A DNA stretch of 49,511 nucleotides from an uncultured Candidatus Saccharibacteria bacterium (GCA_964348575.1 CAYGDD010000001.1:1-49511); one strand, 5' to 3'; shown: positions 17,689-35,656, numbered from the stretch's first letter. Notes: generated from the letters alone by a model not told the origin. Translations and numbers: made by a program.

Positions 17689-18177
17689 CTACTCGGTGGG
17701 AGCGTCCTCTGCGGGAGTGTTCTCATCATCTTCCCAAGGATTGGCTTGGGGTATGGCGAACGTCGGCTTAACTTCGCCATTGACGATCATCCAAAGGAAT
17801 TGTACTGCTTCCTGGATGGATCGTGCAGAAAGGCTGATATCCTGCGTCCATGTTTGCCGGCCGTTCCCAGTGGAACTTTGACCACATAGCCGGGTCTCTA
17901 TCTTTGCAAATTTTTCGTTATGGGTAGGTGCCAGGTAATAGCCTGGTGACATCTTTCCCATATCAAGGTGGTACCACAGGCTAACACCTGCCACCCACTT
18001 GTCAGGTAGGCCGGGTGTTTCTTGGGTAGACCTCGGGGCAATCGGATCGAAATGATTATAGTCGAGGTAGAAATCGCCTCGCTCGCACTGTTTCGGCTTC
18101 CTTCCCTCCAGCGCCTCTTTGAGGTACGGGTCGGTCTCAGGGTTGCCTGCGAGGTAGAGCCTTGTCGTCCCGATCAT
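17689..18177 (-). CDS. hypothetical protein (162 aa) in GC-richer cassette 1
   Basis: AGGAGG (18182-18187) lies 4 nt before ATG 18177. The gene has its own promoter and a downstream hairpin. I recognise no family. Confidence 0.6.
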   Translation of the reverse strand: MIGTTRLYLAGNPETDPYLKEALEGRKPKQCERGDFYLDYNHFDPIAPRSTQETPGLPDKWVAGVSLWYHLDMGKMSPGYYLAPTHNEKFAKIETRLCGQSSTGNGRQTWTQDISLSARSIQEAVQFLWMIVNGEVKPTFAIPQANPWEDDENTPAEDAPTE

Positions 18178-29382: not shown

Positions 29383-30958
29383 AAAAATTGTTGTAGTACT
29401 CCCAGCGTATAACGCTAGTCGTACTCTCTTGCGCACATTGCAGGCGATACCCAGAGATGTTGTTGACGACATAATTTTGGTTGATGACTGTAGCAGGGAT
29501 GATACAGTCGAGGTATCGCGCTCTTTGGGGATTAAAACATTTGTACACGAGAAGAATCTAGGCTACGGCGCCAATCAGAAGACTTGCTATAGCGAGGCTC
29601 TTGGGTTGGGCGCAGTGATCGTGGTGATGGTCCACCCAGACTTCCAATACGACCCCAAATATATTCCGGCCATGGTGGCGCCCATAGCAAGGGGCGAGGC
29701 AGACGCAGTCTTTGGCTCGCGTATGGTCCACCCAGAGGACGCCCTAAAGGGGGGCATGCCAAGATGGAAGTGGTATGCTAACAAATTTTTAACCATGGTT
29801 GAGAATTTTATTTTGAGACTTGATCTCACTGAGTATCATTCGGGATTTCGCGCTTATCACAAGCGAGTATTAGAATTACCCATAGAGCTTAACTCCAATA
29901 ACTTTGTCTTTGATACAGAGATTATTGTGCAGATGGCGGTAGCCAGAATGCGCATTTTGGAAATTCCCATCAGTACGCGCTATTTCCCTGAGGCCTCGAT
30001 GATCGGCTTTGGAAAGTCGGTTAGATACGGTCTATCTATTTTGGTTGTTATGATAAAGTATATTCTTCATAAACTAGGCTTTCATCGTGCACAATTTACT
30101 TTCGATAAAATCAAGTCGGGTGTAACTTGTAGGCTTTGTGGTGAAAGGAAAGTGCAATTGCTGAAGAGGGCTACAGCAGAACCAAAGAAGCTCTTTGCAA
30201 AACCTTACGCCATTACCGAAGAAGGTGCAGGGGAGCATGGAGATATCTATAAGTGTCTAACTTGCCGGGCCTCATTTGTTCAAAGTACAGGGGAGCTAGA
30301 GGGACTTTTGCACAATTACTACAAGCAAGCCCCCTTAGATCTGGTATATATCAAAGATGTAGTAGGCAGGAAGAAGACTGCCCGGGAAGTATTAAAGTAC
30401 GTGCAGGGGAAGACGCTTCTAGACTTTGGTTGCAACACAGGCATCTTCTTAGACCAAGCGCGCACACTTGGTTATGACGTTACTGGGGTAGAGGCTTCTA
30501 GTGTAGCTCGCGCTTATGCCAAGCAGAATTATAATCTAGATATTGTAGAAGCTATTCCAGAGGGCAAGCAGTACGATGTTATCACTATCTTTGATGTGTT
30601 AGAACATGTAAGTGAGCCAAAAGCTCTTGTCCAGACACTAAGTTCTAAGCTTACCCCCGGGGGGGCAATAGTTATTACTGCGCCAGATATTGGTAGTCCT
30701 ACGGCGCGTCTAATGGGCAAGAGGTGGCACGCTCTTGTGCCTGGCCACTTAACATACTTTAACAACCACAGCATTTCATACCTGGCTCGCGTGCTTGGTA
30801 TGAAGGTGGTTAAGACTATCTGGTATAAGCGCTACTTGACTGTTGGCTCGATGATAAATAGGTTACTCCGAAGGCAAGATTTGCGAGTGCCGATTATCGG
30901 TGATTTTGTCATTGCGGGTAATACTTATGACGAACCCTTATGGATACTAAAAAAATAA
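29369..30958 (+). CDS. fusion protein: GT2 glycosyltransferase + C4 zinc ribbon + class I SAM methyltransferase
   Basis: GT2 region: KIVVVLPAYNAS...ILVDDCSRDDT...VMVHPD. Ribbon: CRLCGERK...(about 33 aa)...CLTCRASF. Methyltransferase region: LLDFGCNTGIFL...ITIFDVLEHV. Confidence 0.7.
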   Translation: MLQGKKIVVVLPAYNASRTLLRTLQAIPRDVVDDIILVDDCSRDDTVEVSRSLGIKTFVHEKNLGYGANQKTCYSEALGLGAVIVVMVHPDFQYDPKYIPAMVAPIARGEADAVFGSRMVHPEDALKGGMPRWKWYANKFLTMVENFILRLDLTEYHSGFRAYHKRVLELPIELNSNNFVFDTEIIVQMAVARMRILEIPISTRYFPEASMIGFGKSVRYGLSILVVMIKYILHKLGFHRAQFTFDKIKSGVTCRLCGERKVQLLKRATAEPKKLFAKPYAITEEGAGEHGDIYKCLTCRASFVQSTGELEGLLHNYYKQAPLDLVYIKDVVGRKKTAREVLKYVQGKTLLDFGCNTGIFLDQARTLGYDVTGVEASSVARAYAKQNYNLDIVEAIPEGKQYDVITIFDVLEHVSEPKALVQTLSSKLTPGGAIVITAPDIGSPTARLMGKRWHALVPGHLTYFNNHSISYLARVLGMKVVKTIWYKRYLTVGSMINRLLRRQDLRVPIIGDFVIAGNTYDEPLWILKK

Positions 30959-32643
30959 TTTTAAGTATTCTATTTTTGGCATTTGTTATCCGGGTGGTGG
31001 GTATTAGCTATGGCTTACCTATGACTCTTATACATGATGAGCCGGGCTTAGTCTTCGGGGCTCTCAAGATGTTAGAGCTTAAGAGTGTCCTACCCTTTAT
31101 GCACTTGGCTGACTTTGCCGGCACTTTATACTACCCGCCTTATATATCATATTTGTACCTACCGTTTTTTGCTATGGCTATTGGGGTAAAACTTCTTACT
31201 GTTACAAGTAATTTTGAATTGCTTAAAAATTTGCTAATTGCTGACCCCACTGTATTTTATCTGGGAGCTCGGTTTATTTCGGTCCTCTTGGGCACTGCTA
31301 CAGTCTACTTGGTTTATCTTATCGGCAGGCAGATGTGGCAGAGTAAGCGCTCCGGACTCTACTCGGCCCTTATGCTCAGTCTCTCGTACATCCACACCAT
31401 CTTCTCGCATTGGGGCAGACACTGGGTGTCGGTCACGTTTATATTTACGCTTGCTATGTATATGCTATCCCGGCGTGACATTGCGCAAAGCAAGCGTTAC
31501 TTCTGGGCCACATTAATTTTGGGCATTGGCATCGGCTTTAACTTCCAGATGACCATTGGTATCTTGCTCTTGCCTCTGTGGTATCTCTTGTATGACAAGC
31601 AGAGGCTTCGGGATGCTCTCTCTGCCACCTGGGTGTGGAAGCTTGTTTTGCTCTTTGTTAGCCTGCTTGGCTTGGCCTACCTTATCTATCCTGCCGGCTT
31701 CGTAGTCACAGCTAATGACGTTTATGGGGCCTCTAAGGGCCTAGGGGGCCTGTTACTTAGCTACGCCTTCCATGCCTCCACCCTGCTCTTTAACGACCCT
31801 ATTTTGCTCATATTTAGCTTACTGGGATTATATTACGCTTCTCGGCATAGGCGAGAGACACTCACACTTATTTACTTTAGTATAATCTATGTGGCGGTGT
31901 TCTACTTCCTGCTGTTCCAGGTTGATCGTTATATTATGATGCTCTTACCCATACTGGCCCTCTACGCTGGCTATGGCCTTGAACGGATAATTGCCAACAA
32001 GGATGACGTTAATATTTCTACTCCTTCCGATCTTTCTATGTCCAAGAAAATTTTTGTAACATGTATTTTTACTGCAATGCTTGTCCCAATAGTTAAAGCA
32101 GATTATTTGCTATATCTAAATGACACGCGTTCTGTAGCTAACAAATGGATGATGAGCAATTTAGCCCCGGGGACAAAAGTATTTGTCTACGGAGATGCTT
32201 GGCGCATGCCTACCAATGCAAGTGCGGTAGACGAATTAGAAGTGTTGGACCCTGACGCTCTGCGGAGTGTAGATAAGGCCGAGAGAGAGTTAGACAACAA
32301 GCAAGGCCTGCACGTCCTTAATGCATATAATATCAAAGACAAACAATTCTTCGCCAACCTAGAAGCATATCTGAAAGATAATAACTATCAGTACCTAGCC
32401 CTAGACCTAGAGCAAGCCAAGCGCAAAGGCTTTACTCATTTACTTACTCTTGGTGAGCCTGTGCCTTTTGAAGGAGGCGTAGCTAAGTGGGAGGGATATA
32501 TGGATAGGTCGCGCGACGTGGCTAACTGGTTTGGTGGGGGACTTGGAGCGCGCGAAACTATCCCCTGGTTCGCAGGAGGCTTCACCACTCTGTACTCCCT
32601 GCCCCAAAACGGTCCCAGCATAATTATCTACAAACTCAACTAA
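30940..32643 (+). CDS. GT-C fold membrane glycosyltransferase (ArnT/PMT-like)
   Basis: About 11 hydrophobic segments in the first 390 aa, with the early loop motif HDEPGLVFGA. The C-terminal domain is soluble. Confidence 0.65.
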   Translation: MDTKKIILSILFLAFVIRVVGISYGLPMTLIHDEPGLVFGALKMLELKSVLPFMHLADFAGTLYYPPYISYLYLPFFAMAIGVKLLTVTSNFELLKNLLIADPTVFYLGARFISVLLGTATVYLVYLIGRQMWQSKRSGLYSALMLSLSYIHTIFSHWGRHWVSVTFIFTLAMYMLSRRDIAQSKRYFWATLILGIGIGFNFQMTIGILLLPLWYLLYDKQRLRDALSATWVWKLVLLFVSLLGLAYLIYPAGFVVTANDVYGASKGLGGLLLSYAFHASTLLFNDPILLIFSLLGLYYASRHRRETLTLIYFSIIYVAVFYFLLFQVDRYIMMLLPILALYAGYGLERIIANKDDVNISTPSDLSMSKKIFVTCIFTAMLVPIVKADYLLYLNDTRSVANKWMMSNLAPGTKVFVYGDAWRMPTNASAVDELEVLDPDALRSVDKAERELDNKQGLHVLNAYNIKDKQFFANLEAYLKDNNYQYLALDLEQAKRKGFTHLLTLGEPVPFEGGVAKWEGYMDRSRDVANWFGGGLGARETIPWFAGGFTTLYSLPQNGPSIIIYKLN

Positions 32644-32855
32644 CCGGAGGAGGACCGTCCTCCTCCGGCAGGAGTAGGAGGGATATATGGATAGGTCGCG
32701 CGACGTGGCTAACTGGTTTGGCGGGGGACTTGGAGCGCGCGAAACTATCCCCTGGTTCGCAGGAGGCTTCACCACTCTGTACTCCCTGCCCCAAAACGGT
32801 CCCAGCATAATTATCTACAAACTCAACTAACCGGAGGAGGACCGTCCTCCTCCGG
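32486..32855 (+). repeat. tandem direct duplication (period 187 bp) of the gene 3' end plus its terminator hairpin
   Basis: About 32486-32668 is repeated at about 32673-32855. I see one internal mismatch (GGTTTGGTGGGGG versus GGTTTGGCGGGGG). Each copy ends in CCGGAGGAGGAccgTCCTCCTCCGG. Confidence 0.9.
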
Positions 32856-32860
32856 TTTTA
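32831..32860 (+). terminator. rho-independent terminator (copy 2 of the hairpin, the only one followed by a T-run)
   Basis: 11-bp stem CCGGAGGAGGA/TCCTCCTCCGG with a 3-nt loop, then TTTTA. Confidence 0.7.
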
Positions 32861-32876
32861 AGCCTGATCATAGCCA

Positions 32877-32906
32877 TTGACAGTTAGCTTGTCTGTGATG
32901 TATAAT
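32877..32906 (+). promoter_or_regulatory. consensus sigma70 promoter of cassette 3
   Basis: TTGACA (32877-32882), an 18-nt spacer, then TATAAT (32901-32906). Confidence 0.6.
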
Positions 32907-32967
32907 ACACATTGAATCTGAACCCGGTCTAGCGCTTTGCTATGGCCACTAACAACAGGAGGAAACC

Positions 32968-33534
32968 GTGAAAAAGGTTCTTGCTCTATTCGCCATTGTC
33001 GGCGTGGCTATCACCACCTGCTACTTCTTCCCCAGCTTCACTCAGTTGTCGTTCGACACCAGGACGGCATCCTGGCCAAGTGGCGCGGTCGAGCAGATGG
33101 TCGTGGTGTGCGTCGTCCCAACGGAACAGGAGCCGGATCACGTTATGGTCTGGATGCACTCCAAGGTCATGACGGGCACGATCGACCTCTATCCCGTCAA
33201 GAACGACATCGCCGGTCGCTGGTGCCGGGAGTTGGCCTTCAGTATCAACGACAGGGACAGTGGCGAGTTTCTCGACGTCCAACTCCATGCGAGCAGGCTC
33301 ACCGCCAAGCTCTCGCGGGTCGAGCTCTGGCATCCGGTCGACGAGAATGAGATCGCGTGCGCTGTTCGGACCGACGACTTGGATACTGGAGGGTCGGGTG
33401 GCAAGTACGCCCTGAACCTCCGACCAACCGGCAACATTCCGAGAGAACAGCTCCCGGTGCGCAGGTTGTTGGACGCAGGACTGTTCCTCCAAGCGATCAA
33501 GGGTCAGGCGGTCTATCCATCACCCCCCATATAA
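32968..33534 (+). CDS. hypothetical membrane/secreted protein (188 aa) in GC-richer cassette 3
   Basis: AGGAGG (32957-32962) lies 5 nt before GTG 32968. N-terminal hydrophobic segment VLALFAIVGVAITTCYFF. Strong G/C preference at the third codon position. I recognise no family. Confidence 0.6.
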   Translation: MKKVLALFAIVGVAITTCYFFPSFTQLSFDTRTASWPSGAVEQMVVVCVVPTEQEPDHVMVWMHSKVMTGTIDLYPVKNDIAGRWCRELAFSINDRDSGEFLDVQLHASRLTAKLSRVELWHPVDENEIACAVRTDDLDTGGSGGKYALNLRPTGNIPREQLPVRRLLDAGLFLQAIKGQAVYPSPPI

Positions 33535-33541
33535 CCCCCAG

Positions 33542-33594
33542 AGCCCCGGATCCTTTTCGCCACCTTCGGCGGATTGGGTTCGGGGCTATTTTCA
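33542..33594 (+). terminator. candidate terminator of cassette 3
   Basis: Outer stem AGCCCCG (33542-33548)/CGGGGCT (33581-33587) encloses an inner CGCC..GGCG hairpin and is followed by ATTTTC. Confidence 0.4.
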
Positions 33595-33729
33595 ATTAAC
33601 TTGTTTGACGCTCGGTGTTGAACAGTGTTGAACAGGTGAGGTGAACAGATTGGGGGAGTGAAGAAGTGGGGGAGGTAGTTGGAAGTTGCTGGAGTGGCTG
33701 GGACTTGGAGAAGGGAGTAGTGATGGGCG

Positions 33730-33738
33730 TGGTATAAT
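33730..33738 (+). promoter_or_regulatory. extended -10 promoter (TGgTATAAT) 7 nt upstream of the asnB ATG
   Basis: TGgTATAAT at 33730-33738. The spacer GCACGGT contains no SD. ATG is at 33746. Confidence 0.55.
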
Positions 33739-33745
33739 GCACGGT

Positions 33746-35656
33746 ATGTGTGCTATTAATGGGTTTAATTGGTCGGATACGGAGCTGGGAGCTCGGATGA
33801 ATGCGGTTACGGCTCACAGGGGTCCAGACGGCACGGCGGTATATGTAGATAAGGGAGTGACTCTGGGGCATAATCGCTTGAGTATTATTGATCTATCAGA
33901 GTCAGCTAGTCAGCCCATGCATAGCGCAGATGGTCGCTATACAATTACTTACAACGGCGAGCTCTACAATTATTTGGATATAAAGAAGGAAGTAGGCGAC
34001 TATCCGTATAAGTCTAAGAGCGATACCGAAGTGATTTTGGCCGCTTATAGTAAGTGGGGTAGTGGGATGTTAGAGAAGTTTAACGGCATCTTCGCGCTTG
34101 CTATATGGGACAAAGAGAAGGGCGAATTATTCTTAGCCCGTGACCAGATGGGCGTTAAGCCCCTTTACTATTACTACGCACCCGCTACGAGTAAAGAACC
34201 TCCTAAATTTATTTTCTCCTCCGAGATTAAGGGCATTTTAGAGCATAAGTTAGAACGAAGATTAAATCTCACTGCTTTTAACCATTACTTGAGATTGCTG
34301 TATGTGCCGGAACCATTTACGTTGTTTGATGGAGTAAATAAATTGCCTCAGGCGCATTCCGCCATCTTAAATAGTTCTGGTCTTAAGTTGACTCGTTATT
34401 GGAACAAGGATTTAGAAACCCCTATCCCGGAAGAGGTAGATAGGCGGGCGACTTTTGAGAGTCTAAGGAGTATGGAATTGTATAGCAAGATAACAAAAGC
34501 TGTTGAGCGACAGCTGGCCTCAGACAGGCCACTCGGGGTGTATTTATCGGGCGGTATAGACTCTAGTTCGGTCTTGGCCTCTATGAAGAAGTTCAGAGAC
34601 AGTATAGATACATTTTCTGTCGGCTTTGACCTTGAGGAAGGCGAGCAAGAAGAGAAGTTTAATGCTGACTTTAACCTTGCACGACAAGTAGCTAAGCACT
34701 TTAACACCAACCACCACGAACTAACTATAAAGTCAGACCAGGTGGTTGATTTGCTTAAGCAGGCTATATGGCATATGGACGAGCCTGTTGTTAATGCCAC
34801 TATTATCCCGATGATGGCTCTGTCTGAGTTTGCCAAGAATAAGGTGGACGTAGTCTTGGGAGGAGACGGCGGGGACGAGCTCTTTGGTGGCTACGAACGC
34901 TACCAACTCTCCTATAGGGCATCGAGCTATAGATTAACCGTACCAAATTTTATACGTTCGTGGCTTAATAAGTTTCCAAAACTTGCGAAGCTTAATACCA
35001 ATGAGGGAGTGGATAGGTATGCCTTGTTTATGTTCCAGAAGGAAGACGTGATATCAAGAGTTATAAATAGTACTTACGATAACAAAACGATAACTAGGGA
35101 ATACTTTGTGAGTAAGTATTTTCCCGAGAAAGATTACAGAACAGAGAGGGATTCTTTCGAGGAGTTGTTTATGCGAGTAGATCGCAGGACATGGCTAGTA
35201 GATGAGGATTTAAATAGAGGAGATAAGCTCTCTATGGCCCACGGCCTAGAGCTTAGAGTCCCGATGTTAGATAGAGATGTGGTTGAATATTCGGCAACTA
35301 TCCCCGCAAGAGCAAAAATTTTTATAGCAGGCCTAAACTTGAGTGCAACTAAAATCCCAGGGAAAGGGATACTTAAAGCTGCTTTCGCTGAAGATTTACC
35401 CAGCTTCCTATTTGGTCAACCTAAGAGGGGATTTTATTCACCTGTTGCCAAGTGGTTGCGTAGACCAGAAGTGTACAACCTAGCCAAAGAAGCATTTACA
35501 CCAGAATATTACCCACCCAGTGCAGATTTGTTCAATTGGGATGAGATTAATGTGATGCTTGAGGAGCATTATGACAAGAGTAAGTACCACGCCAACATTT
35601 TGTGGTTAGTCCTGTCGTTCCAACTATGGGCTAAAATGTTTAAAATCGAAGTGTAA
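33746..35656 (+). CDS. asnB: asparagine synthase (glutamine-hydrolysing)
   Basis: The start is set so that the protein begins MCAINGF, giving the obligatory N-terminal Cys nucleophile of class II amidotransferases. Also HRGPDG, LGHNRLSIID and the PP-loop LSGGIDSS. Confidence 0.9.
   Translation: MCAINGFNWSDTELGARMNAVTAHRGPDGTAVYVDKGVTLGHNRLSIIDLSESASQPMHSADGRYTITYNGELYNYLDIKKEVGDYPYKSKSDTEVILAAYSKWGSGMLEKFNGIFALAIWDKEKGELFLARDQMGVKPLYYYYAPATSKEPPKFIFSSEIKGILEHKLERRLNLTAFNHYLRLLYVPEPFTLFDGVNKLPQAHSAILNSSGLKLTRYWNKDLETPIPEEVDRRATFESLRSMELYSKITKAVERQLASDRPLGVYLSGGIDSSSVLASMKKFRDSIDTFSVGFDLEEGEQEEKFNADFNLARQVAKHFNTNHHELTIKSDQVVDLLKQAIWHMDEPVVNATIIPMMALSEFAKNKVDVVLGGDGGDELFGGYERYQLSYRASSYRLTVPNFIRSWLNKFPKLAKLNTNEGVDRYALFMFQKEDVISRVINSTYDNKTITREYFVSKYFPEKDYRTERDSFEELFMRVDRRTWLVDEDLNRGDKLSMAHGLELRVPMLDRDVVEYSATIPARAKIFIAGLNLSATKIPGKGILKAAFAEDLPSFLFGQPKRGFYSPVAKWLRRPEVYNLAKEAFTPEYYPPSADLFNWDEINVMLEEHYDKSKYHANILWLVLSFQLWAKMFKIEV

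Follow-up and report, generated by a model that had tools for sequence, protein, structure and literature searches.

Comparison with described systems

Phage morons (Cumby, Davidson & Maxwell 2012, PMC3594210; e.g. HK97 gp15), genomic islets acquired by horizontal gene transfer (HGT) in Patescibacteria (PMC12455944), species-specific orphan genes (Vakirlis et al. 2024, PMC11293555) and the variable proteins of diversity-generating retroelements (DGRs; Roux et al. 2021, PMC8144416) are the closest described counterparts of the gene studied here, an open reading frame (ORF) at 32968-33534 of a 49.5-kb contig from an uncultured Candidatus Saccharibacteria bacterium (GCA_964348575.1, CAYGDD010000001.1:1-49511; the whole 49,511-nt stretch is called the window below). 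The contig belongs to a 677-kb, 42-contig genome with 46.7% GC, assigned by its relatives and gene content to Patescibacteria (Candidate Phyla Radiation, CPR). An initial annotation had placed three single-gene cassettes in this window, and we analyzed the third (cassette 3).

Morons are independent promoter-ORF-terminator units that sit between two undisturbed genes, deviate in composition, encode small, often membrane-associated proteins of no recognized family, and spread horizontally. Cassette 3 appears to resemble them in all of this, and its own promoter and terminator are recognizable at the motif level. Unlike a moron, it has no prophage around it, its neighbors on a cellular chromosome being a glycosyltransferase gene and asnB; it is also GC-richer than its host, a trait that persists across hosts in a sibling family.

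Like the HGT islets of Patescibacteria, cassette 3 is derived, absent from the corresponding site of relatives, deviant in GC and dinucleotides, and located at a hot spot (PMC12455944). It differs from them in comprising a single gene (~0.9 kb), in lacking a tRNA, an integrase and flanking repeats at the locus, and in having no homologue or nameable donor in the collections searched (see below). It is also GC-richer than its genome, whereas foreign and orphan genes are usually AT-richer or host-like (PMC11293555). The HGT survey of Patescibacteria reported mostly intra-phylum exchange, which is consistent with the reading preferred below, and the cassette class is not described there (PMC12455944).

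Species-specific orphans share with cassette 3 the restriction to one species, the short length and the lack of a known domain, but their GC equals that of the genome, or is lower when they are viral-like or de novo (PMC11293555), whereas cassette 3 exceeds its genome by 13 points and differs from its host in expression design as well. As for DGR variable proteins (PMC8144416), one such family includes a sibling gene of this genome (C3:12878-13612), whose third-position composition is that of cassette 3; cassette 3 itself, in contrast, has no variable repeat/template repeat pair (VR/TR) in the genome, no reverse transcriptase (RT) nearby and no similarity to the family. A role as DGR target was rejected, as no part of the ORF was found a second time in the genome and the ORF is not similar to the DGR-type sibling. 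An integron gene cassette was rejected as well (cassette 3 has its own promoter and its 3' hairpin is single-copy; intI was not searched for).

The reading we prefer, with a probability of roughly 0.55, is that cassette 3 is a species-restricted accessory gene, organized as an insulated, moron-like monocistronic unit, which was inserted into a normally abutting gene pair and comes from a gene pool internal to Patescibacteria. Cassette 3 is a solid example, with clear limits, of a gene class that still awaits explanation; these bacteria have other genes of this class, and a fresh grab from a high-GC partner is not demonstrable.

Cassette 3 is a derived insertion between PMT_2 and asnB

The features of the locus, all on the plus strand, are as follows.

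30940-32643: GT-C (PMT_2-type) membrane glycosyltransferase gene with full C-terminus (Pfam PF13231, 1.2e-08; PF02366)
32644-32668: repetitive extragenic palindromic (REP)-like palindrome CCGGAGGAGGACCGTCCTCCTCCGG, copy 1, without T-run, directly after the PMT_2 stop codon (-22.2 kcal/mol, z = -4.4)
32673-32855: copy 2 of a 183-nt tandem duplication (PMT_2 tail and hairpin); copy 1 at 32486-32668, period 187, one mismatch
32877-32906: sigma-70-type promoter TTGACA-18 nt-TATAAT, matching the consensus at 12/12 positions (-35 at 32877-32882, -10 at 32901-32906)
32907-32967: leader of ~55-60 nt with AGGAGG (32957-32962), a Shine-Dalgarno (SD) motif 5 nt ahead of the start codon
32968-33534: cassette 3 ORF, 188 codons, GTG start, orphan; G+C at third codon positions (GC3) 0.767, with significant periodicity
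33542-33593: long hairpin (33542-33587) followed by AUUUU, resembling an intrinsic terminator by its folding energy relative to shuffles
33596-33745: spacer rich in G and poor in C (64 G, 13 C), which belongs to the derived insertion and whose 3' end supplies the asnB promoter
33730-33738: host-style extended -10 element TGgTATAAT, ending 7 nt ahead of the asnB ATG
33746-35656: asnB, asparagine synthase (glutamine-hydrolysing) (PF00733, 3.8e-80; GATase_7, GATase_6)

PMT_2 and asnB are 4 nt apart in a same-genus genome (G002) and 6-13 nt apart at seven metagenome loci where a PMT_2 homologue has the same orientation as asnB (L043, L044, L050, L056, L059, L060 and L066). The 1.1 kb between them here (32644-33745) is therefore a derived insertion, and the cassette is not universal at this locus in relatives. 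Both flanking genes are intact: the C-terminus of PMT_2 aligns to its end with the G002 and G003 orthologues (G003 being a third genome of the genus), and the true asnB start reads MCAINGF, where orthologues begin MCA(I/V)NGF. Within the genus, the PMT_2-asnB site is a hot spot for accessory genes.

The locus thus offers a before/after picture of gene addition, with an empty site in eight lineages and a filled one here, where a terminator and a self-contained unit have been added and the leaderless promoter of the downstream gene has been rebuilt. Judged by its motifs, the insertion is transcriptionally insulated, by the palindrome behind PMT_2, its own terminator and a newly gained asnB promoter, so that the initial description of a single-gene, self-sufficient unit between native genes holds at that level. 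A REP-like hairpin with a T-run, at which PMT_2 transcription would terminate, now closes this gene; the consensus promoter would start a transcript with a ~55-nt leader, on which the strong SD would drive translation of the 188-aa protein from GTG; the hydrophobic N-terminus may export this protein or anchor it in the membrane; the 3' hairpin (-35 kcal/mol) would stop the cassette transcript; and asnB would be restarted from its new extended -10 element as a leaderless mRNA, as the 7-nt distance between this element and the ATG implies.

The left border is formed by a palindrome whose 21-nt core (consensus GGAGGAGGAC[C/G]GTCCTCCTCC; window copies at 32646-32666 and 32833-32853) has nine copies in the genome, mostly 2-7 nt past stop codons (the others are at C2:27849, C3:22007, C20:10718/10785/11503, C26:2072 and C38:2695), and the hairpin on the right is unrelated to it in sequence. 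With these copies, an IS200/Y1_Tnp-like protein encoded in the genome, a tandem duplication at the left junction, and the promoter-ORF-terminator architecture and deviant composition known from morons (PMC3594210), one may think of a phage or mobile-element remnant, either a true moron left behind or the cargo of a hairpin-dependent Y1 transposase/REP system. We consider such an origin improbable, since the two bounding hairpins are unrelated, no target-site duplications or terminal direct or inverted repeats flank cassette 3, and the duplication is missing from an independent assembly (L007) that still carries the cassette. In addition, no phage genes lie nearby, PHROGs has no match, and no match was found among 50,697 phage records and 72,556 plasmids (blastn) or in IMG/VR. 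Among the GC-rich cassettes inspected, a REP hairpin at the border was seen for cassette 3 only.

The cassette 3 ORF is GC-rich and coding

In line with the initial annotation, cassette 3 is the clearest compositional island of the window: the 500-nt segment 33001-33500 has the highest GC of the contig (0.606; runner-up 0.540). The ORF has a GC of 0.593 (GC1/2/3 = 0.582/0.429/0.767), as compared to 0.453 and 0.439 for its neighbors (GC3 0.51 and 0.47) and to 45-47% for the host genome (GC3 0.49), i.e., it lies 13 points above the genome in GC (~59%) and 28 points in GC3. Its raised GC3 (z = +3.4) ranks fifth among 763 crudely called ORFs of the genome. As about a dozen peaks of this type occur across the genome, cassette 3 stands out in the window but is not unique in the genome. 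The GC-rich part is limited to the ORF and terminator; promoter and leader have 43% GC.

Counting both strands, seven overlapping ORFs reach 50 aa or more within 32937-33599, in agreement with the multiple long frames reported initially. These frames, the lack of homologues and a low-confidence structure model would fit a GC-rich non-coding insert, or a binning or assembly artefact, with long ORFs because stops are rare. This explanation is very improbable. The excess of GC3 over GC2 in the 188-aa frame (0.34) was matched in 0/20000 shuffles, the canonical order GC3 > GC1 > GC2 is seen in this frame alone among those of cassette 3, and an open frame of at least 188 codons arises in 1.3% of composition-matched shuffles; based on this periodicity and frame length, we accepted the ORF as coding. 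A strong SD properly spaced from the first start codon and a signal-peptide-like N-terminus also speak against a non-coding insert, and five independent assemblies agree base for base. Cassette 3 is a real, coding gene, and multiple open frames commonly result from the scarcity of stops in GC-rich coding DNA. The alternative frames (168, 137, 103 and 80 aa) were rejected as the true gene (no Pfam matches, non-canonical GC-position patterns).

The five assemblies are the one containing the window and four further ones (three ENA samples and one Logan run), all with identical cassette 3 sequence. MEGAHIT assemblies L007 (ERZ27247828) and L008 (ERZ27247830) carry the ORF, while L195 (MEGAHIT, ERZ27247820) and L196 (Logan, ERR3094295) begin inside it and have its 3' part joined to asnB; each of the four is 100% identical to the window over the cassette parts it covers. 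The initial annotation had singled out the junctions at about 32860 and 33600 for checking: L007 spans the left one, and L007, L008, L195 and L196 span the right one. Given the four further assemblies with identical sequence, cassette 3 is not a chimera or assembly artefact.

The encoded protein has no relatives

Cassette 3 encodes a 188-aa protein with the hydrophobic N-terminus noted initially (mean hydropathy of residues 1-25, 1.6-1.7, after a KK motif), followed by ~160 residues with four Cys and a strand-like pattern. The N-terminus is probably a signal peptide or signal anchor and the remainder probably beta-rich, and, as far as sequence features can tell, the protein is most likely exported or membrane-anchored and thus at the surface or secreted. 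A lipoprotein was considered and rejected: Cys 18 (...AITTC) has an atypical residue at -1, and Lgt (PF01790) and LspA (PF01252) were both not found in the genome (estimated 100% complete), so Cys 18 would be no working lipobox and the protein would not be lipidated.

No family was recognized, as stated initially: the protein has no matches in Pfam, PHROGs and NCBIfam. The protein collection we searched holds ~15 billion proteins and includes assemblies of samples that contain this bacterium. A word-indexed search of its 5.8 billion clusters returned only self-matches, and a full phmmer pass over 1.84 billion representatives found no relatives beyond two weak matches (P0002 and P0003), which were rejected as repeat-inflated chance alignments. 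A six-frame search of 400 genomes of the order found no homologue, the best phmmer match in PDB has E = 1.7, and neither paralogues in the genome nor similarity to the genes in the G003 slot were found. Cassettes 1 and 2 of the window are likewise orphans by homology search; with all three lacking relatives, no common donor clade, which the initial annotation had suggested looking for, can be named for them.

The absence of relatives anywhere searched would also be expected of a native orphan, born de novo or diverged beyond recognition, with GC3 raised and kept high by a local process that goes with the transcription unit, or because selection acts on SD-led mRNAs. According to published surveys, most orphans limited to one species are more likely native (PMC11293555), high GC in cassette 3 is confined to the transcribed ORF and terminator (promoter and leader excluded), and a sibling family holds high GC3 across many hosts. 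We nevertheless regard a native origin as unlikely: in eight related lineages nothing but 4-13 nt separates the flanking genes, which leaves no local non-coding DNA for gene birth; the periodicity together with the shifted GC1 and GC2 points to a long coding history under GC pressure; de novo and typical orphans are GC-poorer than the genome or equal to it (PMC11293555); and members of the sibling family are not syntenic even within the genus, a sign that it moves and does not simply persist in place.

Two gene-expression designs in one genome

Cassette 3 differs from most genes of its host in its expression signals. In the host, -10 boxes cluster at positions ending 6-8 nt before the start codon (approximately 69/408 genes with an upstream gap, vs ~3-4 per position elsewhere), and the consensus of 113 aligned host genes is TnTGnTATAAT, ending 6-8 nt ahead of the start, with no -35. 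This pile-up and the -35-less consensus indicate that the host is largely leaderless with extended -10 promoters, a pattern that the new asnB promoter matches. In contrast, an SD 5-mer was found upstream of roughly 5% of the ORFs (41/763), which are small (median 162 aa) and GC3-richer (median GC3 0.572 vs 0.488; Mann-Whitney p = 4e-8), and 8/18 ORFs with GC3 z > 2 are SD-led (Fisher odds ratio 17, p = 1e-6). The flanks of such genes have a recurrent layout: a promoter 60-100 nt upstream, SD and ATG, a GC-rich ORF, and a strong hairpin with U-run. Cassette 3 is an extreme member of this SD-led, GC3-rich class, and cassette 1 (17689-18177) is a mild one. Thus two designs coexist in one 677-kb genome, one leaderless and -35-less, the other with -35 and SD, GC3-rich and orphan.

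The class also differs in composition and gene content. Pfam gave no match for any of the 13 proteins examined that are GC3-rich or encoded by cassettes, as compared to matches for 8/10 random size-matched ordinary genes, and the ten most GC3-rich ORFs of the genome all lack a Pfam family. The pooled GC-rich class has a delta* of 127 from the host (host chunks, 34 +/- 12); CpG is undepleted in the class (rho 0.99 vs 0.76 in the host) and TpA is depleted (0.66 vs 1.03). Third-position profiles of cassette 3, C3:12878 and C2:22447 are near-identical. The native highly expressed genes S6, S11 and RRF have GC3 of only 0.35-0.45, so host translational selection doesn't explain the GC3 of the class.

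The cassette signals themselves were read correctly in the initial annotation. Perfect matches of the type TTGACA-18-TATAAT number five in the whole genome, the one of cassette 3 included. The AGGAGG-GTG start is as described, and the 3' hairpin that had been taken as the cassette's own terminator folds with -35.3 kcal/mol (z = -6.07, equalled by 0/200 shuffles) before its AUUUU; no second copy of this hairpin was found in the genome.

Sibling families and the source of cassette 3

Since cassette 3 has no relatives, we looked to siblings of the class that do. C3:12878-13612 is SD-led, encodes 244 aa and has GC3 0.77. Its family occurs in 42/401 genomes of the order and at 77 GTDB loci, nearly all labelled Patescibacteria. 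It is GC-richer than its flanks at 69/73 scorable loci (mean +10.7 points; median GC3 0.72), with flanks that span 30-60% GC, and many relatives retain the SD. Even within the genus the gene is common while its neighbors are not. High GC at nearly all loci across such a range of flanks makes it a lasting trait of the class, not a time stamp of recent import. The results on siblings argue for lasting GC in mobile accessory genes of Patescibacteria, without being proof for cassette 3; as these families are patchy, non-syntenic, GC-rich and essentially limited to Patescibacteria, cassette 3 was most likely acquired by horizontal transfer within that pool.

C3:12878 is a homologue of Patescibacteria DGR variable proteins. 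At L141 (CAYMVF010000026.1, 2252-4809) the 3' end of the family member forms a VR/TR pair with a template repeat that is identical at 113/122 positions, with 8/9 mismatches at template adenines, and an RT (PF00078, 8.9e-26) follows; the copy in this genome has no TR. A Patescibacteria-restricted DGR clade (DGR clade 2, Roux et al. 2021, PMC8144416) agrees with this family.

The initial annotation had proposed an ongoing route of single-gene acquisition, possibly from a high-GC partner organism. Single-gene insertion is supported, as cassette 3 is a self-sufficient unit and a derived insertion and all three cassettes are orphans; the proposed source is not supported, and acquisition may or may not be ongoing (the cassette is identical in all five assemblies). 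Codon-position GC follows genome GC in a known way (the Muto-Osawa relation), and the values of cassette 3 (0.58/0.43/0.77) fit a gene evolved in a ~60% GC genome, as would be expected if a single gene had recently been imported from a cellular partner or host of high GC and had not yet drifted to the composition of the recipient. The non-host dinucleotide signature of the class, an SD and a -35 promoter as in most cellular bacteria but unlike this host, and a derived, species-restricted insertion fit as well. Yet no homologue was found in the ~15 billion proteins, although the searched assemblies include the source samples, where a partner should be at least as abundant; the Pfam result (0/13 vs 8/10 controls) is unlike that of a random gene sample from a cellular donor; and sibling relatives are in Patescibacteria, GC-rich at 30-55% amino-acid identity in AT-rich hosts, which is too much elapsed time for unameliorated imports. 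Such an import is unlikely, and a high-GC partner cell is a less likely source than the Patescibacteria gene pool.

A more general reading, which we hold only tentatively, is that of a dispersed accessory class of Patescibacteria with its own undecaying 'dialect', as opposed to an AT-richer core with leaderless, extended -10 genes. The dialect would comprise, equally tentatively, a -35/-10 promoter, a strong SD in a leader, GC3-rich codons, undepleted CpG and a strong terminator, and it would move with the genes from host to host across 30-60% GC. If so, there may be a shared vehicle or reservoir of ~58% GC (virus, plasmid or high-GC Patescibacteria) or selection for GC-rich SD-led messages, and cassette 3 would be a member that arose recently or evolves fast and that encodes a surface protein.

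Several observations weigh against placing cassette 3 in a Patescibacteria-internal pool. Cassette 3 has no relative, so its membership rests on architecture and composition like those of its siblings, not on homology. The class statistics come from a crude longest-ORF call, which makes the SD and leaderless counts approximate. The best-documented sibling, C3:12878, may be a special case as a DGR variable-protein family, and for another sibling, C15:3579-4583, a search of 350 genomes gave two relatives, of which one is GC-rich and the other host-like. Mobility signatures were not found either (no tRNA in the window, no integrase-sized neighbor, no transposase or phage genes beside the cassette), nor were matches in the phage, plasmid and IMG/VR collections given above. 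The single-sequence AF2 model of the protein (predicted local distance difference test, pLDDT, 33) is uninformative.

Patescibacteria are ultra-small episymbionts, in which accessory surface proteins probably decide partner attachment and phage resistance. The product of cassette 3 is most likely a surface or secreted protein of the episymbiont, and a role in host contact or in the exclusion of phages or competitors is our guess, by analogy with small membrane-bound moron proteins (PMC3594210). If the GC-rich design is lasting in a mobile pool, it may provide a simple signature for accessory and host-interaction genes of the CPR, and the question becomes what carries or maintains it.

Additional observations at the locus

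The leader of cassette 3 has no significant fold (z = 0.39) and no Rfam match, and the spacer (33596-33745) likewise has neither; an RNA element in leader or spacer was therefore rejected. The spacer carries a tandem GTGTTGAACA x2 at 33615-33634. GTATAAT[A/G]CAC (10/11) is common to the -10 regions of the cassette (32900-32910) and asnB (33732-33742), the only two such sites in the genome. With blastn-short, promoter/leader, terminator and spacer gave only chance matches of 14-22 nt in the genome, i.e., no non-coding scaffold common to the cassettes was found. The metagenome-assembled genome has no 16S gene in which to check for an anti-SD.

Two other GC3-rich genes, C2:22447-23121 and C10:18571-18936, are paralogues (29% identity over 108 aa, E = 2e-9). 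The IS200/Y1_Tnp-like gene is at C31:3907-4620. In G003 the PMT_2-asnB slot is filled by other small genes: a leaderless signal-peptide ORF follows PMT_2 (L005 5999-6270), and ~1.6 kb before asnB (L019 1-1640) contains ORFs of 181, 77 and 105 aa with GC of 0.50-0.55 vs 0.38-0.44 in the flanks (the G003 contig ends inside the slot).

The duplication with 187-bp period (32486-32855) is absent from L007, which spans the site and retains cassette 3, so the two are independent; either the duplication is polymorphic or the window was misassembled here. TTTT (32856-32859) trails its copy 2 only. Its junction reads …CCGG CAGGAGTA GGAGGG… (the window sequence across it includes CCTCCGGCAGGAGTAGGAGGG), and junction and a 47-aa mini-ORF are on no other contig; other genomic contexts for the exact PMT_2 product, or further copies of the 47-aa duplicate ORF, are not on record. 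L008, L195 and L196 start at window positions 32900, 33285 and 33417, inside or just before the cassette, which hints at a coverage drop or graph branch. Duplication aside, the window differs from L007 over 5 kb by four single-nucleotide polymorphisms within 41 nt of the PMT_2 tail (32573-32613; one Ala-to-Val, three synonymous), which adjoin the insertion site; this cluster looks like a small recombination patch.

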